From an uncultured Candidatus Rokubacteria bacterium (GTDB lineage: Bacteria > Methylomirabilota > Methylomirabilia > Rokubacteriales > CSP1-6): 64,000 nt of DNA. Each line of letters opens with the position of its first letter. Positions within the stretch are counted from its first letter, which is position 1. Made by a program: the position numbers and the translations under genes. The notes under the pieces were generated by a model. The model made no database searches. It saw only the letters and a program-made list of their open reading frames with translations, and was not told the DNA's origin. Shown one piece after another: positions 7,199 through 53,800 of the stretch. Location: assembly GCA_963758635.1 (NCBI GenBank), contig CAVWWD010000007.1, positions 64,001-128,000 of the forward strand, given 5' to 3'.

Positions 7199-7591
7199 TC
7201 AGCGGTACTCGCGGAGGATCCGTCGCGCGACGACCATCCGGTGCACCTCGTCGGGGCCGTCGTAGATCCGCGCCGCGCGGGCCTCGCGGTAGAAGCTCTC
7301 GAGCGGGACCTCGTCCGAGATCCCCATGGCGCCGTGGGCCTGCACGGCGCGGTCGATGACGTCGTGCAGGACCTTGGCGCCGAAGAACTTGATGAGCGAG
7401 ACATCGGTGCGCCAGTCGAGCTTCTGGTCCATCTTCCAGGCGGCCTGGAGCGTCAGTAGCCGCGCCGCTTCCATCTCGGCCCGCGAGTTGGCGACCCAGT
7501 CCTGCACGGCGGGATAGACGTCGCGCTCCATGATCTGGGTCGTCACGCGCCTGAGCTGTTCCTGCTCGGGGGTGGGGCTGAAGTCGATCAT
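7199..7591 (-). pseudogene. Internally deleted acyl-CoA dehydrogenase (N-terminal ~27 aa fused to the C-terminal domain)
   Basis: MIDFSPTPEQEQLRR (ACAD N-terminus) is joined in frame to AARLLTLQAAW...AVQAHGAMG...ARIYDGPDEVH (ACAD C-terminus). Total length is only 130 aa. Confidence 0.75.
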
Positions 7592-7755
7592 GGTGGCTCC
7601 TCCGGCCGTTTCCGACGGACGGTGACGCGGGCCTCGCGCTGTCCCAGGCGCCGCTCACGCTCGCCGGCGCCTTGGTTGGAGTGGCCGGTGCAACGGCCGT
7701 GCCCCGACGGTCACGTGCGCATCGCGAGCGGAGAAACGCCGAGCCCGAGTGTACT

Positions 7756-9389: not shown

Positions 9390-9483
9390 CGCGGGCCGGC
9401 CGGCGGCCGCCGGTGTCACCGGCACGGGACCGGTCAGGTCCGGGATCGGCCGGCTGCGGAGAGGGCGCGGCGAGAAGCCGAGC

Positions 9484-10841
9484 CTAGAAGCTGCGGATGA
9501 GGCGCTCGACCCGCTCGTCGTGGCTCTGGAACGGATCCTTGCAGAGGATGGTCTCGCGCTCCGGGTCGTTGAGCTTCAGGTAGACCCAGTCCACGCGGTA
9601 GTCCTTCCCCTTCAGGTTGGCCTGGCGGATGAACTCGCCGCGCAGGCGCGCCCGGGTGGTCTGGGGCGGCGCGTGCTTGGCCCGCTCGATGGCCTCGTCG
9701 GTGGTGACGCGGTCGACCATGCCGCGGCCCACGAGCCTGAAGTAGAGGCCGCGGTCCGGCCGGATGTCGTGGTACTGCAGGTCGATCAGCGAGACCTTGG
9801 GGTCCCGCCACGACAGCCGGTTCTTGGTCATGAAGTTCTCGATCAGCTCCTTCTTGATGACCCAGTCGACCTCGCGGGACAGCTGCATGGGGTCCTGGGT
9901 GAGCTGCTCGATCACGTACGTCCACTTGGCGAGCACGTCCTTGGTGACGGGATCGGCGTCGATGGTCTGGACGTAGCGCGTGGCGTGCTCGAGGTACTCC
10001 GTCTGGAGCTCGAGCGCGGACATCGACGCGGCCGTCCTTGAGCCGCACCGTCTCGCGGAGCGTCGGGTCGTGGCTGATGTCCCGGATGGCCTGCACCGGC
10101 GACTGGAGGCTGTAGTCGCGGTCGAAGTGGCCGTCCTCGATCATGTCGAGGATCAGCGCGGTGGTGCCCACCTTGAGGTAGGTGGCCATCTCGGACATGT
10201 TCGAGTCGCCCACGATCACGTGCAGCCGGCGGTAGCGCTCGGCGTCGGCGTGGGGCTCGTCGCGCGTGTTGATGATCGACCGCGACGACGTGGTGGCGCC
10301 CGAGATCTCCTGGCAGATGTGCTGCGCCCGCTGGGACAGGCAGTAGTGGAAGCCCCGCGGCGTCTGCAGCACCTTGCCCGCGCCCGCGAAGATCTGCCGC
10401 GTCACGAAGAAGGGGATGAGCCCCTCGGCGAGACGCTGGAACGAGAACGTCACGGCTGACCAGGTAGTTCTCGTGGCAGCCGTAGGAGTTCCCCGCGGAG
10501 TCGGTGTTGTTCTTGAAGAGGAGGATGTTGCCGGAGATGCCGTCCTCGCGCAGGCGCTTCTCCGCCTGATGGAGGAGGTCCTCGACGATACGCTCGCCCG
10601 CCTTGTCGTGCGTGACGAGCTCGGTGACGTCGTCGCACTCGGGCGTGGCGTACTCGGGGTGGAAGCCCGTGTCGAGATAGAGCCGGGCGCCGTTCTCCAG
10701 GAAGACGTTCGCGTTCCGGGCGCCGGGGATGACCTTCTCGAAGAGGTAGCGGGCGACGTTGTCCGGCGAGAGGCGCCGCTGGCCGTTCAGCGTGCACGTC
10801 AGGCCGTACTCGTTCTCCATGCCGAAGATGCGCCGCTTCAT
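9484..10841 (-). CDS. pafA: Pup--protein ligase (frameshifts ~10447 and ~10027)
   Basis: [99 protein letters not shown]. Confidence 0.93.
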
Positions 10842-10904
10842 GTGGGCCTCAGGGTAGCAGGGGCTCGGACCCTCCGCAAGAATTCCTGCGTGTGGGAGCG
10901 GGCG

Positions 10905-11598
10905 TTACGTGGTCGCGGGGAGGAGCTGGTGCAGCACCTCGGACGGGATCCGGCGGAACTTCCGCCGCTCCTTCGTCCGATCGAGCACCGCCACCTCGAG
11001 GTCGCGCTCGGTGAGCGTCTTGTTCTGCGTGACCATGAGGGCCCGGACGCCCAGGTGCAGCGCGGCCTCGAGGTCGAGGCTGTCCTGGAAGTTGTCCTTC
11101 AGGTAGCGCCGGATCTCGTCGGACTGGCCGCCCATGGCCGCGTAGTTCTTCTCGTCCTCGATGGTTCCGTCGTAGAGGATGTGGTAGATCTCGTTCTTCG
11201 CGCCGTTGTCGACGCCGACCTCGACCACCAGCACCTCCACCTCGAAGGGCTTGATGTCCTGGGTGAAGATGTTCCCGAGGCCCTGGGAGTAGGCGTTGGC
11301 GAGGGCCTTGGCGCGTCACGTCGCCCCGGCTGTAGGAGTAGCCACGGAGGTCGGCGTGCCGGACCCCGGCCACCCGCAGGTTCTCGAACTCGTTGTACTT
11401 GCCCACGCCGGCGAACGCGATGCGGTCGTAGATCTCCGAGATCTTGTGGAGCAGGGTCGAGGGGTTCTCGGCCACCAGGAGCACGCCGTCGCGGTACTCG
11501 ATGGCCACGATGGCCTTGCCGCGGGAGATGCCCTTGCGGGCATACTCCGCCTTGTCCTTCATCATCTGCTCGGGCGACACGTAGTAGGGCAGCGGCAT
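10905..11598 (-). CDS. prcA: 20S proteasome alpha subunit (frameshift ~11312)
   Basis: [61 protein letters not shown]...RKFRRI. Confidence 0.93.
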
Positions 11599-12395
11599 CA
11601 GAGACGCCCTCGGTCGCCGAGGATGGCCTCGCAGTGCCGGCGGATCTCGTCGTCCGGCACCTGGCTGAGCCCCGAGCGGGTGATGGTGGTCACGGTGGGG
11701 AAGATGCCCCGGTTGAGGTCGGGGCCGCCGGTGCCCAGGTCCTCGTCCGCGGCGTCCATGATGGCCTCGATGGCCACGCGGAGCGCCTCGTCCTTGGGGA
11801 GGTCGCGGCGGAACCGCTTCTTCAGCGAGTCGCGCGCGTCCTTGCCGCCCGAGCCCTGGGCGAAGTAGTCGGTCTCCTCGTACCGGCCACCCGTCACGTC
11901 GTACTTGAAGAGCCGCCCCACCCCCGCGCGCTCGTCGAAGCCCGCGAAGATCGGCACGACCACCAGCCCCTGCATCGCCATGGGCAGGTTCATCCGGATC
12001 ATCTGGCCGAGCCGGTTGGCCTTGCCGTCCAGCGAGAGGTTCTCGCCCTCGACCTTTTCGTAGTGCTCGAGCTCGGTCTGGAAGAGCCGCGCCATCTCCA
12101 TGGCCGGACCCGCCGCGCCCGCGATGCCCACCGCGGAGAGGTCGTCGGCCTTGAAGATCTTCTCGATGCGTCGGTGGGCGACCTGGTAGCCCTCGCTCGC
12201 CTGGCGATCGCCGGCCATGACGATGCCGTCGCGGTAGCGCATGGCGAGGACGGTGGTGCCGTGGGGGACTCCGGGCGTGCCCGCGTCCTCGTGTCCCGGC
12301 GGCCTGGCGGAGGGCAGGAGATGCGGCGCGCTCTGACGGACGAACTCGGTGAAGCTCGAGCTCAGGGAGCCCGACCGGGGCTGGGCCTCGAACAT
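11598..12395 (-). CDS. prcB: 20S proteasome beta subunit with propeptide
   Basis: PHG|TTVLA autocleavage site with catalytic Thr, [34 protein letters not shown]. Confidence 0.96.
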
Positions 12396-12402
12396 TGGAG
12401 TC

Positions 12403-13902
12403 TCAGAAGTCCCCGGCGGGCTTGCCCAGGTTCCGCAGGAGGTCGGCCGCGGTCGGCGAATCGGCGAAGAGCTGCCGCACGTGCGCCTCCGTGCCGCGCA
12501 GCGGCTCCATCATGAAGATCTTCTTGAGCGGTCCTTCCTTGAGGTCGAAGATGACGGAGTCCCACGAGGCGGAGACCACCTCGTCCGAGTACTTCTGCAG
12601 GCACATCCCCCGGAAGTAGGCCCGCGTGTCCTTGGGCGGATCGAAGATGGCCTTGGAGACCTCGTCCTCGGTGACGAGGCGCTCGACGGCGTCGGACTCC
12701 TCCAGCTTGTAGAAGAGGCCCTTCCCGGGACGGATGTCGTGGTACTGCAGGTCGATCATGGCCACCCGCGAGTCCGACCACGAGAGCCCGTGCTTGTCGC
12801 GGTAGCTCTCGATGAGCCGGCGCTTGATGACCCAGTCGAGCTCACGCTCCAGGCTCTCGGGATCGCGCGCGAGGCGGTCGAGCACCGACGTCCACCGCGC
12901 GAGGACGTCGTGCACCCACGGCTCGGGGGGGCGGCTCTCGTAGTACCGGCGGGCCCGGTCGAGGTACTCGCGTTGCAGGTCGATCGCGGTCAGCGCGCGC
13001 CCGTCCTTCAGGCGCACGGTCTCCCGGCAGGCGAGGTCACGCGAGATCGTCCGGTGCGCGATGACCGGGCCGTCCAGCGAGAGGTCGCGCTCGATGAAGT
13101 CGTCCTCGATCATGCTGAGGACGATGGCCATGGTCCCCATCTTGAGGTAGTTGGACACGTCGGCCATGTTCGCGTCCCCCACGATCACGTGGAGGCGGCG
13201 GTACTTCTCGGGGTCGGCGTGGGGCTCGTCGCGGGTGTTGATGATGGGACGGCTGTGCATCGTCTCGAGTCCCACCTCGGTCTCGAGGAAGTCCGCGCGC
13301 TGCGCCATCTGGTAGTCGCAGTGCTCGGTGTTGTTCTCCGCCCCCACCTTGCCCGCGCCCGTGAAGATCTGGCGCGAGGCGAAGAAGGGCATGAGGTGCT
13401 GGACGATCCGTGCGAAGGGCACCTTCCGGTCCATGAGGTAGTTCTCGTGGGTCCCGTAGGAGTTGCCCTTGCGGTCCGTGTTGTCCTTGTAGATCAGGAT
13501 CCGCTGCTCGGGCGGCGACACTGCTTCCGCCCGCGAGCGTGAGAGGTTCAGGATGCGCTCGCCCGCCTTGTCCCAGATGACGCAGTCGCGGGGGTTGGTG
13601 GTCTCGGGCGAGGAGTACTCGGGATGCGCGTGGTCCACGTAGAAGCGCGCCCCGTTCGACAGGATCAGGTTGATGAGGCGCGACTCCTCCTTCGAGGGCA
13701 CGTCCTTGTCCTCGGCGTACTCGAAGCCGCGGGCGTCCTTGAGCGGGCTCTCCGCCTCGTAGTCCCAGCGGATGCGCGAGGAGCGGTACGTCTCGTAGGA
13801 GTTGATCAGCAGCAGCGACGAGAGGATCGGGTTGAAGTCGGGCTGGTTTCGGACGGTGATGCCATACTCGGTCTCGATCCCCATCACCTTCGGAATGGCC
13901 AT
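12403..13902 (-). CDS. dop: Pup deamidase/depupylase
   Basis: VMGIETEYG, LSNGARFYVDHAHPEYSSPE, SYGTHENYL, QRADFLETEVGLET, DTRAYFRG, SASWDSVIFD, EPLRGT. Confidence 0.95.
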   Translation of the reverse strand: MAIPKVMGIETEYGITVRNQPDFNPILSSLLLINSYETYRSSRIRWDYEAESPLKDARGFEYAEDKDVPSKEESRLINLILSNGARFYVDHAHPEYSSPETTNPRDCVIWDKAGERILNLSRSRAEAVSPPEQRILIYKDNTDRKGNSYGTHENYLMDRKVPFARIVQHLMPFFASRQIFTGAGKVGAENNTEHCDYQMAQRADFLETEVGLETMHSRPIINTRDEPHADPEKYRRLHVIVGDANMADVSNYLKMGTMAIVLSMIEDDFIERDLSLDGPVIAHRTISRDLACRETVRLKDGRALTAIDLQREYLDRARRYYESRPPEPWVHDVLARWTSVLDRLARDPESLERELDWVIKRRLIESYRDKHGLSWSDSRVAMIDLQYHDIRPGKGLFYKLEESDAVERLVTEDEVSKAIFDPPKDTRAYFRGMCLQKYSDEVVSASWDSVIFDLKEGPLKKIFMMEPLRGTEAHVRQLFADSPTAADLLRNLGKPAGDF

Positions 13903-13923
13903 GCGTCCCCCGCTGGTGGGTCG

Positions 13924-13969
13924 AAAAGAAAAGTCGGGCGGGGAGACGCCGGCGTCCCCCGCCCGACTT
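13924..13969 (-). terminator. Intrinsic terminator between arc and dop
   Basis: Long GC hairpin AAGTCGGGCGGGG...CCCCGCCCGACTT followed by TTCTTTT on the minus strand, immediately after the arc stop. Confidence 0.75.
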
Positions 13970-13971
13970 GC

Positions 13972-15804
13972 TTACAGGTACTGACCGGTGTTGATGACCC
14001 GCTCGACGGCCCGCTGCTTTTCCTTGGTCTCGCCCATGAGCGGCTTCACGTAGACGATCCGCTCGCCCTTCTTGCCGGCGATCTTGGCCCAGTCGTCGGG
14101 GTTCGTCGTGTTCGGGAGGTCCTCGTTCTCCTTGAACTCCTCCCGGACCGCGTTGAGCATGTCGTCCAGCGAGATGCCCTTCTCGCTCGTCTGGATGTAG
14201 CGCTTGAGCGCGAGCTTCTTGGCCCGCCGCACGATCGACTCGATCATCGCCCCCGAGGAGAAGTCCTTGAAGAACAGGACCTCCTTGTCGCCGTTGGCGT
14301 AGGTGACCTCGAGGAACCGGTTCTCGTCGTCGAGCTTGTACATCTCCTCGACGGTGGCGGCGATCATGCGGTCGAGGGTGGGCTGGATCTCGCCGCCGTG
14401 CGCGCTCGTCTCCGCGGGGTGGATCGGCAGGTCGGTCAGCATGTACTTGTTGAAGATGTCGACCGCTGCCGTCTGGTCCGGCCGCTCGATCTTGATCTTC
14501 ACGTCGAGCCGACCCGGCCGCAGGATGGCGGGGTCGATGAGATCCTGGCGGTTCGAGGCGCCGATCACGATGACGTTCTTCAGGTGCTCGACGCCGTCGA
14601 TCTCCGCGAGGAGCTGCGGCACGATCGTGGTCTCCACGTCCGACGAGATCCCGGATCCGCGCGTGCGGAAGAGGGCGTCCATCTCGTCGAAGAACACCAC
14701 CACCGGCACGTCCTCGGCGGCCTTCTCGCGGGCCTTGATGAAGATCTCGCGGATCTTCCGCTCCGTCTCGCCCACGTACTTGTTCAGGAGCTCGGGGCCC
14801 TTGATGTTCAGGAACCAGCCCTTGACCTTCTCGCCGCGCTTCTCCGAGATGCGGGCGGCGAGGTTGTTGGCGACCGCCTTGGCGATCATGGTCTTGCCGC
14901 AGCCCGGAGGCCCGTAGAGGAGCACGCCCTTGGGCGGCGCGAGCTGGTGCTCGCGGTAGTAGTCCGCGTACAGGTACGGCAGCTCGACGGCGTCCTTGAT
15001 GGTCTCGATCTGCGTGACGAGGCCGCCGATGTCCTCGTAGCTGATGTCCGGCACTTCCTCGAGCGTGAGGTCCTCGACCTCGCTCTTGGGCAGCTTCTCG
15101 AGCAGGTAGCCGCTCTTGCCGTCCATGAGGATGTGGTCGCCGACCTTCAGCTTCTCGAGCCGCAGCGGGTCGGCGATGATGCCGACCTTGTCCTCGTCGG
15201 CGCGGAGGGTGACGATCGCGCGGGCCGTGTCCAGGACTTCCTTGAGGATGACGACCTCGCCCTGGATCTCGTACCCGGCGGCCTCCACCACGTTCAGGCC
15301 CTCGTTCAGGATCAGCTCCTGGCCCGGCTTGAGGTCGCCCGCCTTGAGGGAGGGGTGGAGGTTCACCTTCACCTTGCGGCCCTGCGAGAGGATGTTGACG
15401 GTGCCGTCTTCATTGTCCGAGAGGAAGACGCCGTAGGTCGAGGGCGGGGCGCAGAGCTTGTCGACCTCCTCGCGGAGGGACGTGATCTGCTCCCGGGCCT
15501 CGTAGAGCGCGTTGACGAGCTTCTCGTTCTGGTTGAAGGACTGCACGAGCTGCCGGTTCGCCTCGCGCAGCTTGTTCTCGAGGACCATCGCCTCCTTGGG
15601 CGCGTCCTCGGTCTTCTTGCGGAGGCGGACGGTCTCCGCCTCCAGGGAACGGACATAGGTCTGGAGGTCCTGCACCTGGACCTCGTACTCCGTGAGACGT
15701 CGCCGATAGTTCGAGTCGGTCATCGGGAGGAACTTGGAGAGACCCTTCATCCCTTCGGCGGAGGGGTCTCGGTTGGGCGTCGGCTTCTTCTCGAACTCCT
15801 TCAT
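13972..15804 (-). CDS. arc: Proteasome AAA ATPase (ARC/Mpa)
   Basis: N-terminal coiled coil, PPSTYG, Walker [26 protein letters not shown], Walker B FFDEMD, C-terminal GQYL proteasome-docking motif. AAGGA RBS before ATG 15804. Confidence 0.96.
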
Positions 15805-15879
15805 CTCGGCCCGTTCCTTTCTCGGTGAGCCAGCAAGCGCTGCCTCGACTCCGGCCGCGTCCGGTTGCGCGGCGCCCTC

Positions 15880-15909
15880 AGTATAGGTGGGCGCTTTCGG
15901 TACAGTCAA
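15880..15909 (-). promoter_or_regulatory. sigma70-type promoter of the proteasome locus, TTGACT-N18-TATACT
   Basis: -35 box at 15904-15909 and -10 box at 15880-15885, about 75 nt upstream of the arc start. Confidence 0.7.
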
Positions 15910-16277
15910 GGCAAATGCCCCTTCCGAGCCATTGAATTCATTCAAATTTTCCCGATTCCCCCCATGGGGTCGGACCAATGGCTCTCACCGTCTCAAACAC
16001 CCCTCCCGCAGACCCGGTTCCATCCGGTTCCGCCGCGGGGCCCCGCTGGCCCGGCCCCCTGCCGGCACCTTCGCAGTGTGCGGGAAGCAAGATGAGTGCC
16101 GCGGTGACGCGCAAAACGCGACGTCCACCATATCGAGGACATGACACGGGCTTGGACGAGCCGCGTGGATCGCGCCGACCCTCGTAGATTGCTGCGCGCG
16201 CGGTCAGGCTGCCCAAGCGTGTCGCTCGTACCCGTCGATCGTCGCGGGCCCGGGTCGTTTGGTCGTATAACTGGGGC

Positions 16278-19616: not shown

Positions 19617-19683
19617 GACCGGCGATCGGGACCCGGCGCCGCGGCCCGACGGTCGCCACGAGAGCCTCGAGCGCCTGCGGCCG

Positions 19684-20214
19684 ATGCGGACCGGGACCCT
19701 GCGCGTCATGGGGGTGGACCCGGGCCTGACCGACACCGGCTTCGGCGTGGTGGAGGCCGGGCCCGACGGCGTCGGCGTCGTCGACGCCGGCGTCATCCGG
19801 ACCGCTCCCGGCCAGCTGCTCGAAGCGCGGCTCAACGCCATCCACGGAGCGGTCGCGCGCCTGGTCGGCGCCTGTCATCCCAGCCTCGTCGTGGTGGAGG
19901 ACCTCTACGCGGAGTACCGGTTTCCGCGGACCGCGCTGCTCATGGCCCATGCCCGGGGCGTCATCTACCTCGCGGCCCGTCAGCTCGACGTGCCGGTCCT
20001 CGCGCTGTCGCCCTCGGAGGTGAAGCGGGCGGTGACCGGCAACGGAGCGGCGGGGAAGGGCCAGGTCCAGCGCGGCGTCCAGACCGTGCTCGGGCTGGCC
20101 GTTCCGCCCCGCCCGAGCCACGTGGCCGACGCCCTCGCCCTCGCCGTGACGGGCATGGCGCGCGTGATGGGCCGGCTGCCGACGGGCCGCGCGCGGGTCC
20201 AGGCCCGACCGTGA
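19684..20214 (+). CDS. ruvC: Holliday junction resolvase
   Basis: [47 protein letters not shown]. Confidence 0.93.
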
Positions 20215-20865
20215 TCGCCTCGCTCCGCGGGCGCCTGCGCGCCAAGCTCGAGGACCGCGTCATCCTGGAGGCGGCCGGGGTGGGCTACGAGGTGTTCCTG
20301 CCCCCCGTCACCCAGCGCGCGCTCGCCGGCGCCAGCGCCGGCGACGGCGACGGCGCCCGAGGTCGAGCTGGCGATCCACTATCATGCGACGCAGAACCAG
20401 CCGCGCCCGGTCCTGATCGGCTTCAGCACCGAGCTCGACAAGGAGTTCTTCGAGAAGCTCATCACGGTGAAGGACGTGGGGCCGCTCGTGGCGGCCCGGG
20501 CCCTCGCCGCGCCGGTGGCGGAGATCGCGTCGGCCATCGCCCGCCAGGACGAGCCGTACCTGCGCCGCCTGCCCGGCATCGGCCCCCAGAAGGCGAAGAA
20601 CATCGTGGCGCAGCTCCAGGGGAAGGTCGCGAAGTTCGCGCTCGTGACGACGGGGGCGCCCGGCGAGCGCGCCCCCGTCGCCGCCGCCCCGCCGCCGCCC
20701 GACGAGGACGGCGTCCGCGGCATGGTGTTCGAGGTGCTGGTGAAGCAGCTCGGCCACCGTCCGAGCGAGGCGGCCCAGCTCATCGACAGCGCGCTCAAGC
20801 GCCGGCCCGGCCTCGCCACGCCCGAAGAGCTGTTCGACGAGATCTACCGCGGGCGCGACCGATGA
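20211..20865 (+). CDS. ruvA: Holliday junction branch-migration protein RuvA (frameshift ~20355)
   Basis: [40 protein letters not shown]. Lies between ruvC and ruvB. Confidence 0.9.
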
Positions 20866-21923
20866 GCGACGCCACGCCCGCCCGCGACATCGCCCAGGTC
20901 ACGAGCCGGCTCGTGCTCCCGGAGGAAGTCCAGGTCGAGCGCCAGCTCCGGCCGCAGCGCCTCGAAGAGTACGTGGGCCAGCGCGCCGCGGTCGAGAGCC
21001 TTCGCATCTCGGTGGCCGCGGCCCGCCAGCGCGGTGAGCCGCTCGACCACGTGCTCCTGTCCGGCCCGCCCGGGCTCGGGAAGACCACGCTGGCCACGAT
21101 CATGGCCAACGAGATGGGCGCGTCGCTCGTGAGCACCGCCGGCCCGTCGCTCGAGCGCGGCGCCGACCTGATGGGGATCGTCGACCGAACCTCGGCGAGC
21201 GCGACGTGCTGTTCATCGACGAGATCCATCGCCTGCCGCGGATCGTCGAGGAGCTGCTCTATCCCGCGATGGAGGACTTCTCCATCAACTTCGTGATGGA
21301 CAAGGGTCTCAACGCGCGGAGCATGAAGATCCCCCTCCGCCCGTTCACGCTCGTCGCGGCCACCACCCGGCCCGGCCTGCTCACGTCGCCGCTGCGCGAG
21401 CGCTTCGGGATCTTCCACCACCTGGACTTCTACTCGGTCGACGAGCTGATCCAGATCGTGGTGCGCTCCGCGTCGATCCTCGGCGCGGAGGTCGCGCCCG
21501 ACGGCGCGGGAGACGGTGGCGCGCCGGGCGCGGGGCACCCCGCGCATCGCGAACCGGCTGCTCCGCCGCGTGCGGGACTACGCGCAGGTGAAGGGCGATG
21601 GCATCGTGACGGCGGCGGTGGCGCGGGCCGCGCTCGACCAGGAAGGCGTGGACGAGGCCGGCCTCGACCGTCTGGACCGGCGCTTCCTCGTCGCGATCGT
21701 CGAGCACTACGGCGGCGGTCCGGTGGGGCTCGAGGCGATCGCCGCCACCATCAACGACGAGGCGGAGACGCTGGCCGAGGTCGTCGAGCCGTTCCTGCTG
21801 AAGATCGGCTATCTCGTGCGGACGCCCACCGGGCGCAAGGCCACGCCCGCCGCGTACGCGCACCTGAACCGACCGCGGCCGCCCGCGCCGAGCGGGCAGA
21901 GCGAGCTGCCGCTGTCGTCGTGA
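20862..21923 (+). CDS. ruvB: Holliday junction helicase RuvB (frameshifts ~21185, ~21510)
   Basis: [61 protein letters not shown]. Confidence 0.93.
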
Positions 21924-22156
21924 CGAGCCTCGTGGAGCTGGGCAAAATCCTCGTGGCTTTCGGCATCGTCATGGTACTCGTGGGGGTGGTTCTGCTCCTG
22001 TCGGGAACCCTCTCGGACAAGGTGCCATGGCTCGGACGACTGCCCGGCGACATCCACGTCAAGCGCGACGGCTGGAGCGTGTACGTCCCGCTCGGCACCT
22101 CGCTCCTGCTCTCGATCGTCCTCACGCTGGTCGTCGCCTTCTTCAGCCGGCGCTGA
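21920..22156 (+). CDS. Small membrane protein (DUF2905-like)
   Basis: LGKILVAFG...[11 protein letters not shown]...[15 protein letters not shown]. This is the typical position after ruvB. Confidence 0.85.
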
Positions 22157-37113: not shown

Positions 37114-37179
37114 GCCGCTGATTCCGGAGTGACCGGTCGCGGCTATAGTTGTCGGAAGCCGATGGCAAGAACCCGCCCA

Positions 37180-38540
37180 TGAAAGGGCCTCTTTCAGCGC
37201 TGGCATCGATGACGGTCCTCGGGGCGATCATCGTGATCGCGCCGCCCGCCGGCATCGCCCAGCCTCGGGGTACACCCCCCGAATCCGCGTCGCCGCCGCC
37301 CGCGGAGGCGCCCGAGAAGCCCGGGATGCCGAGCCTGCCCGGCGAGCCAACCGTCACCTCGCCCTTTGGCCCTTTCGGCGCGTTCGGTCCCCTCGCCCCC
37401 GTCCTCCCGCCCGCGGTGCCCGGGACGGTCGGCCCGTCCGGTCTGTACCTGAGCACGACCTTCTCGGTCGAGGAGGAGTTCAACGACAACATCTTCTCCA
37501 CGTCGACCGGCCGCGAGTGGGACTTCATCACGCGGTTCACGCCGGGTCTCACGCTGGGCTACCGCTCCGAGCCCCTGACCGTCGAGGCCGGCTACGCGTT
37601 CTCCTCGGAGGTGTTCGCAAGGAACTCCGAGCTGAACGACGCGTTTGCGCGGCAGCTCGCCACCGCCACCGTGCGGTACCTTCCGACGCGGCTCCTCCGG
37701 ATCGGTCTGGCCGCGAGCTACCTCAAGACCAACGACGCAAACACTTTCCTGCCCCAGTTCTCGCCCGAGACGCGGCGCCAGATCGGTCGACAGACGGCCG
37801 AGGGGATCGACGCGTCCGGCACCATCGGCTACCAGTTCACCCCGCGCTTGTCGGGTGAGGCCACCTACCGGTGGGCGCGCCGTGAAGTCGAGGACGGGGC
37901 GACCGACACGTCCAACACCGGAAGCGTCGATTTGACATATCTGGTCACGCCCATCGACACGATCCTGGGCACGGTCGGGTTCGGCTTCTTCGACACCACC
38001 AGCAGCCCCACTCTGACTTCCCAGAACATCACAGACGAGATAACGTCGCAGTACGCGACCGCCGGGTGGAGGCGCCGCTTCACGCCGAACTTCGAAGGTA
38101 CCGCGCGGCTTGGGGTTCGCGTGAGCGAGACGCCCGACGTGTCCGTCAGCCCCGAGGCGGCCCTGACCCTGAACTACACCACGGCGACCGTGCTTTACTC
38201 GCTCTCCTACGCGCACACGGCGAGCCCCTCCCTGGGCGAAACGGGCCTGTTCACGGTTGACGCGTTGACCGGAGGCGTCACCTGGCAGGTGCTCCGGACT
38301 CTCAGGGCCGTCCTCGGTGCGACCGTCGCCCGGAGCGCCCCGATCGGAAGCAGCACGACTGGCAGCACGGCGATCACGTATGGTGTGACGGTGGGCATCA
38401 CCTACCAGGTGACCCGATGGGCCAGCGTGCGGGCCGGATACGTCTTCTACTACCAGGACGTCGAGGGGCAGGGCGACAACGTCATGCGCAATGTCTTCAC
38501 GATCGGCGTCGATCTGGGGGCTGGTCTCCGGATCTACTAG
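37180..38540 (+). CDS. Outer-membrane beta-barrel protein, EPS-locus associated
   Basis: Signal peptide, Pro-rich linker, EEFNDNIF...DFITRFTPG, alternating aromatic beta strands, terminal aromatic residue. Directly upstream of the wza-like gene. Confidence 0.78.
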
Positions 38541-38591
38541 CTCGTGGACGGTCGGGACCAGGCCGCGGACGCCTGGGAGAGGGAGCGGACG

Positions 38592-39206
38592 ATGCGGAGT
38601 CGGCGCACGGAAGGCAGGAGCGTGCCGCGAGCGGCGCTGTTCACGGTTCTGGCCGTGGTCATCATCGGAGCGGCGGTTGAGCCGTCGCGGGCCCAGCCGC
38701 AGCGAGAATCGGCCACGCCGCCCACGGACTATCGCATCGGGCCTCAGGACGTGGTCCAGGTACTCGTCTGGAAGAACGAGGCCATCAGCAAGACTGTCCC
38801 GGTGCGGCCGGACGGGATGATCTCTCTGCCGCTCGTGAACGACGTGAAGGCTGCCGGACTGACGACGCTCGAGCTGCGCGACGTGCTCCAGAAGAAGCTG
38901 ACCGAGTACATTCCGAATCCGGAAGTGTCGGTGATCGTGAGCGAGGTCCACAGCTACCTGGTCTCGGTGATCGGTGAAGTTCCCAAGCCCGGGCGGTACG
39001 AGCTCAAGAGCTGGACAACCGTCCTCAACGTCATCGCGCTGGCGGGGGGCTTCAGCCAGTTCGCCGATCGGAAGAGGATCGTGGTGCTTCGACAGCAGGA
39101 CGGCAAGGGTCTCAAGCGCATCCCGTTCAACTACAACAAGGTGGTCACCGGGGAGGATCAGGACAACTTCTTCGTCCTGCCCGGCGACGTAGTGCTCGTC
39201 CCGTGA
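38592..39206 (+). CDS. Polysaccharide export protein (Wza/OPX family, short form)
   Basis: YRIGPQDVVQVLVWKNE, VRPDGMISLPL, AAGLT, VIGEVPKPG, ALAGGF, LPGDVVLVP. Confidence 0.92.
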   Translation: MRSRRTEGRSVPRAALFTVLAVVIIGAAVEPSRAQPQRESATPPTDYRIGPQDVVQVLVWKNEAISKTVPVRPDGMISLPLVNDVKAAGLTTLELRDVLQKKLTEYIPNPEVSVIVSEVHSYLVSVIGEVPKPGRYELKSWTTVLNVIALAGGFSQFADRKRIVVLRQQDGKGLKRIPFNYNKVVTGEDQDNFFVLPGDVVLVP

Positions 39207-39767
39207 CTGCGCTCCAGTAGCCCTTCAAAGCAGGTCGCCCGGACTCGCGGCCGGCGTCTGGTCGTTCCCCTTTCGTCCGGTGATGGCGATTTGTCACCGG
39301 GCGGCGTGCTCGGGATCAGTCCGTGGAAGCGGCGTGCCACGCGATGCGAACCACGAACGGCTGTATGCGCGAGGCGGCGCGCTCCGAAGCCCCGCTCTCG
39401 CATGTCCGGCCCTTGCCTGCCTCGCGGGGAGCGCCCCCGAAAAGTCCCGGTATGAAGCCAGGTGCCTATATGAAGCTCGGGTGCCTATATGAAACGGGAT
39501 GCGGCCCAGCGGTCTTTGGGAACAGGTCCTCTCCCAATTTCGGAGAGGACAACACGGGAATGGCGGCGTACCAGTACATGCCGTCTGCAGCCTGCCGAAA
39601 GTGGGCGTCGCAGTTGGCCCCATTTCCCCAAGACTTGCAGCGACTTGGAACAATTGGCGAAACACCGGACTCGATGGTGCCCTCCGGTCGATACGAGGTG
39701 CGGTTCGCCCCTTTCGGGCAGCAAGCGTCGCCCGAAATTTGAAGTCTCGTTCCGCTCCCCGCCCCCT

Positions 39768-39783
39768 GGGCACGTTCGTTGCT
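39768..39783 (+). promoter_or_regulatory. sigma54 -24/-12 promoter upstream of the Wzc-like gene
   Basis: GGGCACGTTCGTTGCT matches the consensus TGGCACG-N4-TTGCW. Confidence 0.7.
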
Positions 39784-39905
39784 CGTGTTGCCGGCGTGCC
39801 CGGCGCCAGTGTCATGCCGGAGCGCAGTGAATCCGAGAGCCGATCGTGCCAAGGGGCTCATCCCGGTCTGCCCGATGGGCGGTGCGGGGAGGGCGCGGGA
39901 GTGAG

Positions 39906-41480
39906 ATGAGAGCAGACTCTGGTTTCGACGTCGCGCGGATGTGGGCCATCTGGCATCGACGAAAATGGCTCGCGATCATAGCCCTCGTGTTGCCCTTGAG
40001 CTTTGTCGTCAGCTTCCTCGTGGTTCTGCCGAGGATCTACCGGGCGACGGCGACGGTGTTGGTCGAGCGTCAGCTGGTTCCGGAAGAGTTCGTGCGCCCC
40101 ACAGTCACCAGCGGGGTCGAGACGCGGCTCCAGACCATCAGCCAGGACATCCTGAGTCGCGAGCGGCTGGAGGCGCTCATCAAGCGGTTCAATCTTTACG
40201 TGAAAGACAACCCTCGATACACGATGGAGGAACTGCTCGAGCGCACGCGCGATGACATCCAGGTCGAAATCAGATCAGCGGATTTCAGCCGGCGTGACAC
40301 TGCGATTGCATTCACGATCACGTACCGCGGGAAGGATCCCGCCACCGTCGTGAACGTGACAAACATGCTCGCCTTGACCTACGTCGAGGAGAATACGAAG
40401 GTCCGCACGCGGCAGGCGACGGAGACGGCCGAGTTCCTCAAGACCCAGCTCCAAGACCTGAAAAGGCGGCTCGAGGAGCAAGAGAAGCGCCTTGGGGAGT
40501 TCCGGCGGCGAAACATCGGCGCGCTGCCGCAGCAGATGGATGCCAATCTGGCCACCCTGGAGCGGCTCAACCTGCAGCTTCGACTCAACGGTGATGCTCT
40601 CGGTCGGGCTCACACCCGTCGAGAGTCACTCACGGCCGAGCTCGGTATTGTCACCCCCTCGGAGCCGGGCAAGGGCCCCGAGGTCGGCTCAGTGAGGCTT
40701 GTACGCCTTCGACAGGAGCTGCAGGAGGTCAAAACCCGATACACGGCGAAGCATCCAGACGTCGTTCGTCTGGAGACGGAGATCAGGCGGGTCGAGGCCG
40801 ACCTCGCAGCGGACCCGGCGAGCGGCCATAAGTCCACGGAGCGCGAGCTAATCGCGTCCGCGGATCCACAGGTTCGCCGCGTCCGGCAGTCCCTGACGGA
40901 GGCCGAGGCGGAGATCGCGAACCTCAAGAAGGAGGCTGCGTACGTTCGCGACTCCATCGCCACTTACCAGCGTCGGGTCGAGAGCACGCCGCAGAACGAG
41001 GGACAGTATCAGGAGCTCAGCCGGGACTATGACTCGACGAAGCAGCTCTACGCCACGCTGCTCAAGCGATTCGAGGATGCCCAGCTCGCGGAAACCATGG
41101 AATCGAAGCTCCAGGGCGAACAGTTCCGCATCATCGATCCGGCGATGGCTGCGCGCCCCGTGTCCCGACTGAAGATGGCGCTGGCCGCTCTCGCTCTGTC
41201 GATTGGCCTGGCCGTCGTCTCTGTGGTCCTGGCTGAGAGCATGGACAGCTCGTTCCACGCGATCGACGATCTCCGACAGTTCACCAGGGTACCGATCTTG
41301 GCGAGCATCTCCCGCATCGTCACCGAGGCCGACGTGAAGCGGACGCGCCAGCGCTTGCGTCTCGCTGCCGTGTCGGTGGTGGTCACGCTCCTGCTCATCG
41401 TGGCCGGCTCGTACGGGCTTGCCCACAATAACGAGCCGCTGGCCCGTCTGCTGACCATTGGACGGTCGACCGCACGGTAG
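39906..41480 (+). CDS. Polysaccharide chain-length determinant (Wzz/Wzc/GumC-like, no kinase domain)
   Basis: WHRRKWLAII TM, PRIYRATATVLVE, ILSRERL, coiled coils, YTAKHPDV, QFRIIDPA, two C-terminal TMs. Confidence 0.9.
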   Translation: MRADSGFDVARMWAIWHRRKWLAIIALVLPLSFVVSFLVVLPRIYRATATVLVERQLVPEEFVRPTVTSGVETRLQTISQDILSRERLEALIKRFNLYVKDNPRYTMEELLERTRDDIQVEIRSADFSRRDTAIAFTITYRGKDPATVVNVTNMLALTYVEENTKVRTRQATETAEFLKTQLQDLKRRLEEQEKRLGEFRRRNIGALPQQMDANLATLERLNLQLRLNGDALGRAHTRRESLTAELGIVTPSEPGKGPEVGSVRLVRLRQELQEVKTRYTAKHPDVVRLETEIRRVEADLAADPASGHKSTERELIASADPQVRRVRQSLTEAEAEIANLKKEAAYVRDSIATYQRRVESTPQNEGQYQELSRDYDSTKQLYATLLKRFEDAQLAETMESKLQGEQFRIIDPAMAARPVSRLKMALAALALSIGLAVVSVVLAESMDSSFHAIDDLRQFTRVPILASISRIVTEADVKRTRQRLRLAAVSVVVTLLLIVAGSYGLAHNNEPLARLLTIGRSTAR

Positions 41481-47897: not shown

Positions 47898-50800
47898 GTG
47901 GCCATGAGCATCATCCGCCGGTATCACCCTTCCCACGGGCAACGAGCTCTGTGGTTTCTCCACGGTCTAGCTCCCCAGAGCGCCGCGTACAACGCCATGT
48001 CCACGTGGCGCATCCAGTCGCCCGTCGACCTCGGCGCCCTCCGGAGGGCGTGGGCTGGCGTGACACGACGGCACGATTCCATCAGGACAACCTACCGAGT
48101 CGTGGACGGAGCGCTCGTGGCCGAGGTGGGCGACCGCGGCCAAGACCTCCTGCTGGTCGACGCCAACGGGTGGGCTCCCGAGGAGCTTATACGGCGGGTA
48201 TCGCAGGAGGCCCACCGCCCCTTCGACCTCGAGCGTGGACCGCTGTTCCGGGCGATGCTCTTCAGCGCCTCGCCCGAGGACCACGTGCTCCTCATCTCGG
48301 CGCACCACATCGCGGCAGACGGCTGGTCGAACCGGATCCTCATGAGGGAGCTCGGGGCGCTCTACGGCGCCCACACCATGGGGCGCTCGCCGGCATTGCC
48401 CCCCGCCGGACCTTCCTGCGAGGAGTTCGCTCGCTGGCAGGCCGAAATGCTGGCCGGGCCGGCCGGGGAACGTCTCTGGTCGTTCTGGCGCGACCAGCTC
48501 TCAGGTGAGCTGCCGAGGCTCGACCTTCCCGCCGATCGACCGCGCCCCTCGGTCCAACGCCATCGCGGCGCCGCCGAGACGATCGACCTCGACGGCGAGC
48601 TCGCTCTGATGATCGGCCGGCTGGCTCGCTCCCACCACACGACTCCGTTCGTCGTCCTGCTGTCCGCCTTTCAGGTTCTTCTCGCCCGCTACACGGGTCA
48701 GGATGACATCGTCGCTCGGCTCCATCGCGTACGGCCGACCCGTGCCGCGCTTCCGCCGGACCTTCGGCAATCTGATGAACCAGGTCCTCCTGCGTGCTGA
48801 CCTCTCGGGCCAGCCGAGCTTTGCGGACGTGGTGCAGCGGGCCCGGCAGACGGTGCAGGGCGCTCTCGCCCACCAGACATATCCGTTTCCCCTCCTCGTG
48901 GAGCGGCTCGCGCCGGTCCGGGACCCAGGGCGGGCCGCCCTCTGCGACGTCACCTTTGGTCTCACCTACCTGATCGGCGAGGGCCGGGCCACGCTCGACT
49001 GGGGCCAGTTGTCGCTGACCGCACTCCCGGTGCCGCGGCGCGCGAGCCAGAGTGACCTCGATGTGCAGATCGTCGAATCGGCTCACGGCATGACCGCCGT
49101 GTTCCAGTACGACACGGATCTCTTCGACGTCGAGACGATTCAAAGGATGGGCCGGCACTACCGCCGGTTGCTCCGCGCCGTCTGCGCCCAACCCGCCCAG
49201 CGTATCGCGGAGGCGCCCCTTCTCGAGGAAGAAGAGCGTACGGCGCTCGTGGCCGGATGGACCAACGCGAGGCGCGATGGCGTCGAGTCCGCGCGGGTCG
49301 AGACTCTCGTCGAGGCGCAGGTCGACCGCGCCCCCGACGCCGTCGCGCTCTCGGGCGGCGGTCGGAAGCTCAGCTACCGAGCACTGGACGAGCGGGCGAA
49401 CCAAGTCGCTCACCGTCTGCGGCGGTTGGGAGTCGGCCCCGACATGTCGGTGGGCATCTGCGTGGACCGCTCGCCGGATCTGGTGGTCGGTCTCCTCGGC
49501 ATCCTGAAGGCCGGCGGGGCCTACGTGCCGCTGGACCCGTCGCTCCCGCCCGCCCGCCTCGCGTTTGTCGTCGACGACGCCAAGGCCTGTGCCCTCGTCA
49601 CGGAGGAGCGCTTTCGACCGCTCTTCGCCACCTCGTCCATTCCCACCCTCTCGCTCGACGCCGAAGTAGCCAGCCTCGACGGCGAACTGGTCACCCGGCT
49701 CGCCATCGGCGAGTTTCGGTCTGGCCGGGATCGCGCCTACTGTGCGTATACCTCGGGGTCTTCGGGAATCCCCAAGGGCGTCGAGGTGGAGCACCGCGGG
49801 GTGGTCAACGCCGTCGGGGATGTGATCAGCCGTTTGCGACTCGGCCCGGCCGACGTGTGGACAGCCATCACCACGGTGGCCTTCGACGTGGCGTCGCTCG
49901 AGATCTGGGGAGCGCTCGCCGCCGGGGCGCGGCTGGAGATGGTGGATGCGGGCACGGCGGCCGACGGGGAGCAACTGGCCGCCGCCGTGCGCAATACCGG
50001 TACCACCGTGCTCCTCGGCACCCCGACGTTGTGGCGGCACTTGCTGACGTCGGGCTGGTCGGGACAGCCGGGTCTCAAGATGATCTGCGGTGGTGAGCCG
50101 CTCACTCGGGATCTCGCCGAGGCCTTGCTCCAGCGCGGCGCGGAACTGTGGAACCAGTACGGGCCGACCGAGGCGACGATGTACGCGACGACGGAGCAGG
50201 TCATGCGGGACGGGGCGCCGCCGACCATCGGCCGCGCCATCGCCAACATGCGGGCGTACGTGCTGGACCCGCGCGGCGAGCCCGCCCCGGTCGGTGTGGC
50301 GGGCGAGCTGTGGGTCGCGGGAGTCCAGGTCGCCCGGGGCTACCTGAATCGCCCAGTCGAGACCGATCGGTCCTTCGGGGCAGATCCTTGGGTTCCCAAC
50401 AGCCGCCGCTATCGCACCGGAGATCTGGCGCGCTATCGCTCCGATGGCCGGCTCGAGTACCTCGGACGCCTCGACACCCAGGTCAAGATTCGCGGGTATC
50501 GCGTCGAGCTTGGCGAGATCGAAGCGGTGATCGAGTCTCATCCGGCCATTCGCTCGGCGGTGGTGCTGGCGCCGCCAGGCGGAAGTGCTGGCGAGGGACT
50601 GACCGCGTACCTGGTGGTCAGCGATCGCGAGTCATCGCCGCCCGCCGAGGACCTCCGCGCGTTCCTCCAGGCCCGCCTGGGCAGCTACATGATCCCGTCC
50701 ACGTTCATGCTCCTCGACGCGCTCCCTGAGACCCCGGGCGGCAAGGTGGATCGTCGAGCCGTGGCTCGCGCGCCCGCGACCCGGCTCGAGCGCCAAAGAA

Positions 50801-53800
50801 CCCTCCTCCTGCCTCGGACGGGACTGGAGGAGACGGTCGCCCGGATCTGGGCGGAGGTGCTGGAGCTCGAGCGGGTCGGGGGCGACGACAATTTCTTCGA
50901 GCTTGGCGGGCACTCGCTGCTGGCCACGCAGATCGTCTCGCGCATCCGGGAGACTCTTCAGGTCGACCTCGCGTTGCGCGATCTGTTCGAGGCGCCGACC
51001 GTCGCCGGCCTCGTCGAGCGCATCACCGACAGGCTCGGCGACGGGCTGGCTCCTCGGGGGGCGCCAATCGAACGACACGGACACGGGGGGCCGGCGCGGC
51101 TGTCGTTCTCCCAAGAGCGAATGTGGTTTCTCAATCGGCTCGCCCCGGAGAGCGCCGCGTACAACGTGCCGGCCTCGGTGCGCATTCGAGGTCCACTGAA
51201 TCTCGATGCGCTCGTTGCCGCGCTCCGCGACGTTGTCCGCCGGCACGAACTTCTCGGCGCCGTGTTTCCCATGATGGATGGTCGTCCGGTCCAGGTGGTC
51301 ACCGGGGAACAGGTGAGCATGCCGCTCGTCGATCTCCAGGGCGAGCCTGCGGCGTCGCGAGAGGCCCGCGCGCGGGACATCCTGCGGGAGGAAAGTCGTC
51401 GTTCCTTCGACCTGATCAGGGGGCCGGTCTTCCGGATGCTCGTCGTCCGGCTCGCCGCCGCCGACCACATCCTCCTGCTGAACATGCACCACATCGTCAC
51501 TGACCACTGGTCGTTCGGCGTCCTCAGCCGCGAGCTCATCTCCCTCTATTCGGCTCACTGTGCCGGTGAGCCTCCCTCTCTCTCGTCCCTTCCCATCCAG
51601 TTCGCGGACTACGCGGCCTGGCAGCGCGAGTGGCTGACCGGGCCGGTACTGGCGAATCAACTCGCCTACTGGCGCCGTCACCTTGGCGGCGCCCTGCCGA
51701 TCCTCGAACTGCCCGCGGATCGCACGCGGCCGGCGGCGCCGAGCTACGAAGGCGGGTGGGAAGCCCGCCGCCTGGCGTCGACGCTCGTGACGGCGGTCGA
51801 GACGCTCAGCCGTCAGGAGCACGCCACCGTGTTCATGAGTCTCATGGCGGCGTTCACCGCCCTTCTCGCGCGATACTCCGGTCGCGAGTGATGTCCTGGT
51901 CGGCGTGCCGATCGCCAACCGGAATCACCTCGCCTCGGAAGACCTCATTGGAAATCTCGTGAACACGCTGCCCATCCGCACGGATGTGTCCGGCGATCCC
52001 ACGTTCCGCGAGCTCTTGCGGAGCGTGAGAAGCACGCTCCTCGATGCCTATGCGCACCAGGACATGCCGTTCGACCGGCTGGTCCTGGAGCTCCAGCCCG
52101 AGCGCTATGCGAGCCACACCCCCCTGGTCAACGTCCTGGTGAACCTGCTCAATGCGCCCATGCCGCGCAGACGCTTGGCGGAGCTCGCCTGGGAGCCGTT
52201 CCCGTTCGATCGCGGGGCCGCGCAGTTCGACCTGAGCTTGACGGTCGACTGGCGCCGCGAGGGCCAACTCTATCTCGAATACAGCTCGGATGTGTTCGAG
52301 CGGACGAGCGCGCGCCGGATGCTCGATCACTTCTCGACGCTCCTGCACGCCGCGGTGGCGGATCCCGATTGCCGCCTCTCTGAGCTCTCGATGCTGACTC
52401 CGGCCGAGCGCGAGCAGCTCGTGGTGACGTGGAATCGTCACGGAGCTCCCGATCCTCCCGCGGCCTCGATTCACGGGCTGTTCGAGGCCCAGGCGGATCG
52501 CACGCCCGACGCCGTTGCCGTGATGGGACCCGACGACACGCTGACCTATCGCATGCTGGAGGGGAGGGCCAACCAGCTCGCGCGCCACCTTCGGGCGTTG
52601 GGGGTGGGCCTGGAGACGCCGGTCGGTGTCTGCTTTGGTCGGTCGGCCATGACCCTCGTGGCGCTGCTCGGCGTGCTCAAGGCTGGCGGTGCCTTCCTCT
52701 CACTGGACCCGAGTTATCCGGCGGAGCGCCTCGCCTTCATGATGGAGGACTCCTGCGCCCCGGTGCTGATCACCGACGCGCAGCATGCGCCGGCGCTGAT
52801 GAGGCCCGGCGTCCGGGTGGTGCTCCTCGACCGGGAATGGCCGACCATCGAGCGGCAGAGCCAACGGCGGCTCGCCGATGCGATCGGCGGCGATCACCTC
52901 GCGTACGTCATCTACACGTCGGGGTCGACCGGAACCCCCAAAGGTGTTCTGGGGCTGCATCGCGGGGCCGTCAACCGCTTCAATTGGATGTGGCGCACGT
53001 ATCCGTTCCAGAGCGGGGAGGTGTGCTGCCAGAAGACGTCGACCAGCTTCGTAGATTCGATCTGGGAGATCTTCGGCCCCCTGCTCCGGGGCGTGCCCGC
53101 TGTGGTGATCCCCGATCAGGTGGTCCGCGAGCCGCGCCGGCTGATCGAGGTGCTCGCCGAGCACCGTGTGACGCGAATCGCCCTGGTCCCGTCTCTGCTG
53201 AGAGCCATGCTCGAAAGCCAGGCCGATCTGGGCGCTCGCCTTCCGCATCTCAGGCTGTGGGTGTCGAGTGGAGAGGTCCTCGACCCTGATCTCGCTCGGC
53301 GCTTTCGGCAATGCGTTCCCTCCGCTGTGCTGCTCAACCTTTACGGTTGCTCGGAAGCGGCGGGCGATTCGACGTTTCACGAGGTCACCGACGCAGACGC
53401 GCGTGCGGCCGTGCCCATCGGCCGACCGATCGACCACACGGAGATCTACATCCTCGACGATCACCGACGGCCCGTTAACGTCGGCGTGATCGGCGAGCTC
53501 CACATCGGTGGCCGAGGCCTGGCCCGCGGCTACCTGAACCGGCCGGAGCTCACGGCCGAGAGGTTCGTCGCGAATCCCTTCGGCGATCGGGCGGGGGAGC
53601 GGATGTACAAGACCGGTGACCGCGCCCGTTACCGGAGCGACGGGACCATCGAGTACCTGGGCCGCGTCGACTCCCAGGTCAAGATCCGCGGGTTCCGCAT
53701 CGAGCTCCATGAGATCGAATCCGCCCTGGCCGCGCACCCCGATGTCGCCAGGGCCATCGCGGTGACGCGGAAGGACAACGCGGCCGACCAGCGCGTCGTC

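Follow-up and report, generated by a model that had tools for sequence, protein, structure and literature searches.

A Pup-proteasome operon without pup in a soil rokubacterium, and a canonical tag gene elsewhere in its genome

Introduction

The Pup-proteasome gene set of Mycobacterium tuberculosis comprises mpa, dop, pup, prcB, prcA and pafA, and the usual position of pup is between dop and prcB. Some Gram-negative phyla have an analogue of Pup, UBact, a small tag that is encoded together with Dop/PafA-like and proteasome genes.

In the excerpts of the literature drawn on here, the arrangement of these genes is described in firm terms: a 2012 review calls the gene order "rigidly conserved" and places arc in a separate operon (PMC3511204), and pup is stated to adjoin a PafA-family gene "invariably" (PMC2588565). 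Gram-negative lineages (Nitrospirae/Leptospirillum and others) with actinobacterial-type proteasome and pupylation genes have been known since 2007-2008 (PMC2588565, PMC3511204), and Dop/PafA homologues are described as occurring "very sporadically" in candidate division NC10 (PMC7947786).

Here we analyse a stretch of 64,000 nucleotides (the window) from a Candidatus Rokubacteria (Methylomirabilota) genome. A preliminary description, made from the letters of the window, had read in it a complete set of actinobacterial-style Pup-proteasome enzyme genes with no pup among them, and had proposed that the tag was relocated, divergent or deleted, whether by biology or by the assembly.

Results and Discussion

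The enzyme genes and their host

The operon lies on the minus strand in the order arc, dop, prcB, prcA, pafA, and models confirmed both the gene identities and the canonical order first read by eye, including the GQYL tail of Arc. Its features are as follows.

15880..15909, minus strand: promoter-like elements TTGACT and TATACT with an 18-nt spacer, some 70 nt ahead of the arc start
13972..15804, minus strand: arc/mpa, proteasomal AAA ATPase, 610 aa (TIGR03689, 747.4 bits; cut-off 504.75)
13924..13969, minus strand: 17-bp hairpin and U-run, directly 3' of the arc stop
12403..13902, minus strand: dop, depupylase/deamidase, 499 aa, intact (PF03136, 598.4 bits)
12396..12402, minus strand: dop-prcB spacer of 7 nt, the position of pup in canonical loci
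11598..12395, minus strand: prcB, 20S beta subunit, 265 aa (TIGR03690, 307.1 bits; cut-off 191.9)
10905..11598, minus strand: prcA, 20S alpha subunit, in two frames (aligned with relatives' PrcA)
9484..10841, minus strand: pafA, Pup ligase, in three frames (PF03136 pieces)

The arc start was placed at the ATG at 15804, in an ORF that is open to 15978, and the Arc proteins of relatives begin at an identical MKEFEKK; the protein consists of a coiled coil, two OB domains, an AAA domain and the C-terminal GQYL. The promoter-like site upstream is a consensus match only, one of two such sites in 7.2 kb where shuffled sequences lead one to expect 0.4. Judged from its sequence, the hairpin behind arc resembles an intrinsic terminator or attenuator: it folds at -40.5 kcal/mol (z = -3.7), a value equalled by 1 of 200 shuffles, was missed by a simple terminator scan and contains G-runs that differ by single bases among sequencing runs. 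Dop is told apart from PafA by its scores (TIGR03688, 625.4 bits, cut-off 492.3; PafA model, 421.7 bits, under the cut-off of 551.3). PrcB carries a 46-residue propeptide followed by Thr1, Asp17 and Lys33, and the prcB stop and the prcA start share 1 nt.

The set can be called complete in that every enzyme gene is there, but prcA and pafA are not intact as assembled, being interrupted by three frame breaks (discussed below). The three pafA pieces span PF03136 positions 1-156, 152-293 and 294-440, and the intact proteins of a relative score 320.8 bits (PrcA, TIGR03691) and 634.7 bits (PafA, TIGR03686; cut-off 551.3). Across the whole genome PF03136 matches dop and the three pafA pieces only, and the organism hence has one dop and one pafA.

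The host, a soil diderm of the Rokubacteria, is not an actinobacterium, as had been surmised from the window. A Wza-like protein (Poly_export+SLBB) is encoded at 38541-39206, and across the whole genome Omp85/BamA is matched twice and LpxC once; the outer-membrane barrel of the preliminary description gained no support, the ORF at 37149-38540 having no match in a Pfam search at 1e-5.

A canonical pup on another contig

The 67-aa product of a gene at G000:C5:620465-620656, flanked by dcd and by an FmdB-family zinc-ribbon gene, ends in QRGGE and is the single genome-wide match to the Pup family PF05639 at E<=10 (74.9 bits, cut-off 27; seven candidates scored); it also exceeds the cut-off of TIGR03687 (64.1 bits against 41.45). 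Its C-terminal half, the part that the Pup models match, is invariant across 23 aligned sequences. The UBact model NF033388 found nothing over its cut-off in the whole genome, the best match being 18.7 bits against 35. The search with Pup and UBact models that the preliminary description had suggested thus returned one canonical Pup, on contig C5, and no UBact: the tag is relocated, as one of the proposals had it, and it is not divergent. With a canonical pup elsewhere in the genome, an outcome that the preliminary description had itself named as its refutation, the anomaly of a missing tag vanishes, and what is left is an ordinary Pup-proteasome gene set.

Within the operon, the first reading of the junction was exact. 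From the dop TGA (12405-12403) to the prcB ATG (12395) there are exactly 7 nt, gactcca, and the sole PF05639 match lies outside the window. Small indel errors are demonstrable in this assembly, which might raise the suspicion that a pup gene of about 200 bp was lost from this junction during assembly. The chance of this is negligible, since public short-read contigs of three runs (X1, 383 nt; X2, 512 nt; X4, 385 nt) span positions 12061-12572 without a gap and with 1-6 mismatches, and prcB follows dop just as directly in 29/29 and 79/80 dop loci of relatives (two surveys), none of which contains pup (0/29 and 0/80, or 0/109 together). The genome's own pup, moreover, sits elsewhere, in a context that is conserved among relatives. 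The bridging contigs and the loci of relatives therefore both show the proposal of a deleted tag, biological or artefactual, to be wrong.

All six components are above NCBI equivalog cut-offs, prcA and pafA by way of the intact relative, and the system shares with that of actinobacteria the GQYL tail of the ATPase, Thr1/Asp17/Lys33 of PrcB and a Pup ending in GG[E/Q]. As in actinobacteria, arc is set apart from dop, here by the terminator-like hairpin. The two systems differ in their hosts, here a Methylomirabilota diderm, and in the place of pup, which in actinobacteria lies between dop and prcB and here lies on another contig, at a distance from dop of 48 kb in a closed relative (G047, 2.75 Mb).

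The split layout across relatives

Pup was found in 39 of 41 genomes at the level of the order and in 135 of a phylum-wide sample of 151, and the split layout is present in all Rokubacteriales genomes examined. None of 12 pup loci of relatives contained dop, prcB or arc within 1.5 kb on either side. Outside the order the layout varies. The canonical order arc-dop-pup-prcB-prcA-pafA occurs in 5 of 20 further Pup loci, in three families (f8, f9 and f12) of the same class; the canonical sister-family loci (G048, G101, G055, G141 and G049), which belong to the same phylum and have the same genes at 54-63% protein identity, keep pup between dop and prcB, unlike the operon described here. In one locus from a further family (f11) the order is pup, zinc ribbon, arc, dop, prcB, and two genomes (G049 and G083) have two copies of pup. 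Family f4 has larger dop-prcB spacers, of about 270-640 nt; in six such loci, inspected for a remnant of pup, they contained no Pup-like ORF and gave no tblastn match with Pup.

In a PafA-rooted Dop tree (37 Dop and 3 PafA rows, leaving out L135, whose Dop is broken, and L140, whose Dop is partial) the Rokubacteriales form a well-supported clade (100/99); outside it, operons with and without pup are intermixed at weakly supported nodes (81/76, 88/89). The sister group is too weakly resolved for events of loss to be counted or given a direction. We tentatively infer that pup relocated by way of a duplication, which left one copy in the operon and placed another next to the zinc-ribbon gene, and that the copy in the operon was later lost.

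Systems of the Nitrospirae/Leptospirillum type likewise occur in diderms, but in the published descriptions, so far as the excerpts cited above extend, they have pup within the locus, unlike here. A search of the literature on pupylation and proteasomes in Rokubacteria, Methylomirabilis and NC10 found no paper on the pup-split layout; this is a known system in an unusual and apparently unpublished gene layout.

Frame breaks in prcA and pafA

Each of the three breaks is an extra single base, one in prcA (near 11313) and two in pafA (near 10445 and 10027). Relatives' PrcA aligns in two frames, by its residues 1-95 and 96-230, at 89-97% identity, and the pafA pieces are 84-97% identical to the intact PafA of a relative. 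If prcA and pafA were true pseudogenes, the system would be a decaying one, an operon without a working ligase or 20S core; the clustering of the breaks within 1.3 kb, their confinement to these two genes among those of the operon and the fact that none is located in a long homopolymer run would fit such decay. Near-identical short-read contigs of four public runs (X1-X4) from three studies, which match at 99-100% along 123-376 nt, do not, however, have the extra bases: that at 10026 is absent in 4/4 runs, that at 10445/10446 in 3/4, and that at 11312-15 in contigs of X2, X3 and X4 (3/4), although some contigs keep this last base (4.35 of 8.85 depth in X2; 13.2 of 17 in X4). At two of the three break sites X1 contributed no contig, and the contigs could stem from sister strains of the assembled cell, in which case the frameshifts might yet be real in this one organism.

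At least four comparable breaks, moreover, fall in unrelated genes of the same 64 kb, those for RuvB (broken twice, into three frames), a DUF4910 protein and an NRPS condensation domain (at model position 269/270), and the assembly has about one single-base frame break per 9 kb. Apart from the breaks, the identity of the prcA and pafA pieces to the intact proteins of relatives shows no other damage. We consider decay unlikely; since the extra bases are absent from contigs of the four public runs, the breaks are likely consensus errors of the assembly and not pseudogenisation.

Predicted function

We read the window as containing the arc, dop, prcB, prcA and pafA genes of a rokubacterial Pup-proteasome system whose single canonical pup lies on another contig, and we predict, with a probability of roughly 0.85, that this system works as it does in actinobacteria. 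By analogy with the mycobacterial system, PafA would join the C-terminal Glu of Pup to lysines of substrates; deamidation would be unnecessary because the tag already ends in Glu, and Dop would serve chiefly as a depupylase. Binding of Pup would fall to the coiled coil of Arc, and docking on the 20S core of PrcA and PrcB to its GQYL tail, with Arc unfolding the substrate.

The separation of pup from its enzymes across the order, and its close pairing with a gene of another kind (25 of the 33 Pup loci examined), could also be taken to mean that the operon uses some other, unrecognised tag, UBact-like or new, and that the Pup of contig C5 has a separate purpose together with the zinc-ribbon protein. 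The genome is an estimated 87% complete, and a second tag gene could therefore lie on unassembled DNA. We hold the use of another tag by the operon to be very improbable: the tag found is a canonical Pup and the best UBact match stays below its cut-off, a single dop and a single pafA are available to act on any tag, the half of Pup that the models match is invariant among the 23 sequences, and sister families have the same Pup inside the operon.

The zinc-ribbon neighbour of pup

The gene with which pup is tightly paired in those 25 loci encodes an FmdB-family zinc-ribbon protein (TIGR02605, 43.1 bits; cut-off 31.3), the weakest match among the four members of that family in the genome. Its residues C8, C10, C26 and C29 do not vary among 23 sequences, and its tail ends in a Cys/Gly-rich motif. 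In the Methylomirabilota the gene occurs beside an off-operon pup, between pup and arc, and upstream of arc where pup is in the operon; this last position, away from pup, is that in G141.

Homologues of Ruc are described as having an N-terminal zinc ribbon, about 50 residues long and containing four Cys, followed by a variable low-complexity tail, and Ruc of M. tuberculosis (Rv0991c) itself as a redox-regulated zinc-ribbon chaperone, the only member for which redox-switched chaperone activity is known (PMC7448276). The neighbour of pup shares this architecture, a likeness drawn from the published description only; in the part of that source used here Ruc is not described as a pup neighbour, unlike the gene found in this genome (PMC7448276). 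We tentatively suggest, as a conjecture with the odds still well against it, that this FmdB/Ruc-family protein, which tracks pup through all the rearrangements seen, may serve the Pup system as a dedicated accessory factor, perhaps a redox-sensing adaptor or chaperone that would link oxidative damage to pupylation, and that pup may have left the operon so that tag and factor could be regulated jointly and apart from the enzymes.

Implications

A Pup-proteasome operon that lacks pup need not imply a new or missing tag, and annotators of Rokubacteria and other Methylomirabilota should look for pup beside an FmdB-type zinc-ribbon gene. They should also be warned that single-base frame breaks such as those of this assembly can mimic pseudogenes. 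The order of pupylation genes, termed "rigidly conserved" in the excerpted text of the 2012 review (PMC3511204), is not fixed, being split throughout an order of diderms that abound in soil. The only lead remaining is that pup and the zinc-ribbon gene are conserved as a pair, which makes the latter a candidate for a new accessory factor of pupylation that can be tested cheaply.

Gene Content and Order of the Pup-Proteasome Operon

Five genes lie together on the minus strand of the window between 9484 and 15804:

Start 15804, minus strand: arc, with Pfam Prot_ATP_ID_OB_N, Prot_ATP_ID_OB_C and AAA domains
13902..12403, minus strand: dop, between arc and prcB (PF03136, 598.4 bits)
12395..11598, minus strand: prcB, 5' of prcA (TIGR03690, 307.1 bits)
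11598..10905, minus strand: prcA
10841..9484, minus strand: pafA

The arc product matches NCBIfam TIGR03689 at 747.4 bits (cut-off 504.75) and ends in GQYL; its reading frame stays open to 15978, and the start found in relatives (MKEFEKK) corresponds to 15804. A promoter-like site lies upstream (15909-15880), and a 17-bp hairpin with a U-run (-40.5 kcal/mol, z = -3.7) immediately 3' of the arc stop resembles a terminator, which fits the separate transcription of arc described as usual in excerpts of PMC3511204. The G-runs of this hairpin (window 13923-13944) show single-base length differences among public sequencing runs, which may stem from differences between strains or from errors in homopolymers. 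The assignment of dop is specific (TIGR03688, 625.4 bits, cut-off 492.3; the PafA model scores under its own cut-off on this gene), and PrcB carries Thr1, Asp17 and Lys33 after a 46-residue propeptide. Exactly 7 nt separate the dop stop from the prcB start, whereas prcB and prcA share a single base, at the stop of the one and the start of the other. Given these gene identities and the 7-nt spacer, the preliminary description of an arc-dop-prcB-prcA-pafA operon was correct. G+C is 0.64-0.68 over the Pup-proteasome genes (window 10001-16000) versus 0.70-0.74 on both sides.

Location of pup in the Genome

For the tag gene lacking from this operon, relocation, divergence or loss had been proposed. 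The Pup model, searched against all six frames of the entire genome (87% complete; 6.17 Mb in 12 contigs), gave only one match, on contig C5 of the genome under study (G000), beside a zinc-ribbon gene:

G000:C5:620465-620656: pup, a 67-aa ORF with the C-terminus QRGGE (Pup model 74.9 bits, cut-off 27; TIGR03687 64.1 bits, cut-off 41.45)
G000:C5:620250-620460 (L002 9751-9960 in the extracted locus; outside the window), minus strand: FmdB/Ruc-family zinc-ribbon gene (TIGR02605, 43.1 bits, cut-off 31.3)

This single match is canonical and thus places pup elsewhere in the genome, an outcome that the preliminary description had itself named as contrary to its account; relocation stands, divergence and loss do not, and the puzzle of the missing tag is resolved. 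A search of the genome with the UBact model yielded nothing above cut-off (best 18.7 bits vs 35), and the only Pup-ligase family matches in the genome are dop and the pieces of pafA. A dCTP deaminase gene lies upstream of pup, and the zinc-ribbon gene, encoding a 70-aa protein with an MPIYEY.C..C start and a Cys/Gly-rich tail (GGGCCGGGCGCH), begins 2 nt downstream of the pup stop.

Frame Breaks and the dop-prcB Junction

As assembled, prcA spans two reading frames and pafA three, a feature absent from the preliminary description; alignment to intact relatives places extra bases near 11313, 10445 and 10027. Logan contigs from four public runs (three studies) were aligned to window 9400-14000. 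Sister strains may be the origin of these contigs, and the run that holds them best may be the source sample itself. The contigs omit the base at 10026 in four of four runs, that at 10445/10446 in three of four (run X1 having no contig at the site) and that at 11312-11315 in three of four, there in only part of the depth; those omitting the bases carry 0-2 mismatches over 123-376 nt. Unrelated window genes are similarly split, at contiguous Pfam model positions: RuvB falls into three frames (19617-22156, RuvA/RuvB), a DUF4910 gene (61300-62647) breaks at model position 174/175, a condensation domain of a non-ribosomal peptide synthetase (51839-51891) at 269/270, and an acyl-CoA dehydrogenase (7199-7654) retains only its C-terminal part in a split frame, with at least seven frame breaks in 64 kb. 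The public contigs and the like splits elsewhere therefore indicate frequent single-base assembly errors, to which the three breaks in prcA and pafA most likely belong.

An assembly deletion of pup between dop and prcB, also raised initially, is contradicted by contigs of 383, 512 and 385 nt that bridge the junction without a gap, and by relatives: prcB directly follows dop in 29 of 29 dop loci from their genomes and in 79 of 80 from public contigs (flank up to 6 kb; the remaining locus stops before prcB), with pup near dop in none of either set.

Gene Layout across the Phylum

Of the 41 genomes in the order, 39 encode Pup, as do 135 of 151 genomes sampled across the phylum. Within 1.5 kb either side of 12 relatives' pup loci, dop, prcB or arc never occurs, the zinc-ribbon gene occurs in 11 and dcd in three; in G047, a closed genome of 2.75 Mb that belongs to a different family, 48 kb separate pup from dop. 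Twenty further Pup loci, all from other families, include five with the canonical order arc-dop-pup-prcB-prcA-pafA (families f8, f9 and f12), and in one of these (G141) the zinc-ribbon gene sits upstream of arc. The order in G140 (f11) is pup, zinc ribbon, arc, dop, prcB, prcA, pafA, and in 13 of the remaining 14 loci (f1, f3, f4, f7, f11 and f13) the zinc-ribbon gene lies 2-39 nt 3' of pup, the pair having no adjoining Pup-proteasome gene, although in G083 an arc fragment follows ~1.7 kb beyond it. The fourteenth locus is the second pup copy of G049, with its zinc-ribbon gene 1.8 kb away. Overall, it begins 2-39 nt after pup in 25 of 33 loci examined across the phylum, a non-random sample picked by author and by best score; this conserved pairing offers a lead on a candidate partner gene.

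Two genomes, G049 and G083, each carry two pup copies, which suggests that pup was duplicated and the operon copy then lost. In a tree of 37 Dop rows rooted with three PafA rows, the Rokubacteriales form a single clade (100/99) throughout which operon pup is missing; the sister group is too weakly resolved for counting events.

Some f4 relatives have dop-prcB spacers of about 270-640 nt instead of a few bases (L035 2988-3629, L047 2988-3629, L038 1152-1501, L036 2988-3260, L040 1119-1501), in which no Pup-like ORF was found; a conserved stretch just 5' of prcB resembling CTGTATAATCC is a possible internal promoter. Some f4 genomes also encode a third Pup-ligase-family paralogue, with 48-51% identity to Dop over ~360 residues (G029:C92:2055-9044, G036:C10:101945-103030, G034:C4:145620-146753, G038:C18:211733-212824). 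Together with a Pup-like partial match, which covers model positions 25-69 and sits in an open frame of 330 aa ~6 kb from the G029 paralogue, it may represent a second pupylation-like module.

Host Envelope and Proposed Function

The genome's matches to Omp85/BamA (two) and to LpxC (one), together with a Wza-like export protein encoded in the window, bear out the earlier view of a diderm host. An apparent polysaccharide export cluster (window 37149-41480) starts with an ORF of 463 aa that matches no Pfam family, previously a possible outer-membrane barrel, followed by the Wza-like Poly_export and SLBB protein and a third protein, possibly a chain-length regulator, with a weak GNVR-domain match under the Pfam cut-off (27.0 vs 27.7 bits). 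Window 48613-55916 encodes part of a non-ribosomal peptide synthetase, with A-T-C-A-T modules, and after it an ABC exporter.

That some Gram-negative lineages have proteasomes of the actinobacterial type and pupylation has been known since 2007-2008 (excerpts of PMC2588565; De Mot 2007, as cited in PMC3511204). Excerpts of PMC7947786 mention Dop/PafA homologues for candidate division NC10; the literature searched contained no published description of pup split from the dop-prcB operon in this lineage. By mycobacterial analogy (excerpts of PMC3511204 and PMC7947786), PafA would join the terminal Glu of Pup to lysines, Dop would take Pup off again and deamidate GGQ forms (GGQ is the ending of 5 among 26 listed Pup sequences), and Arc would bind Pup, unfold the substrate and pass it to PrcAB; we infer such a working from this likeness, no sequence feature speaking against it. 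The Pup-proteasome system of this diderm soil lineage is real and probably complete and functional, with a split gene layout that is unusual yet lineage-wide.
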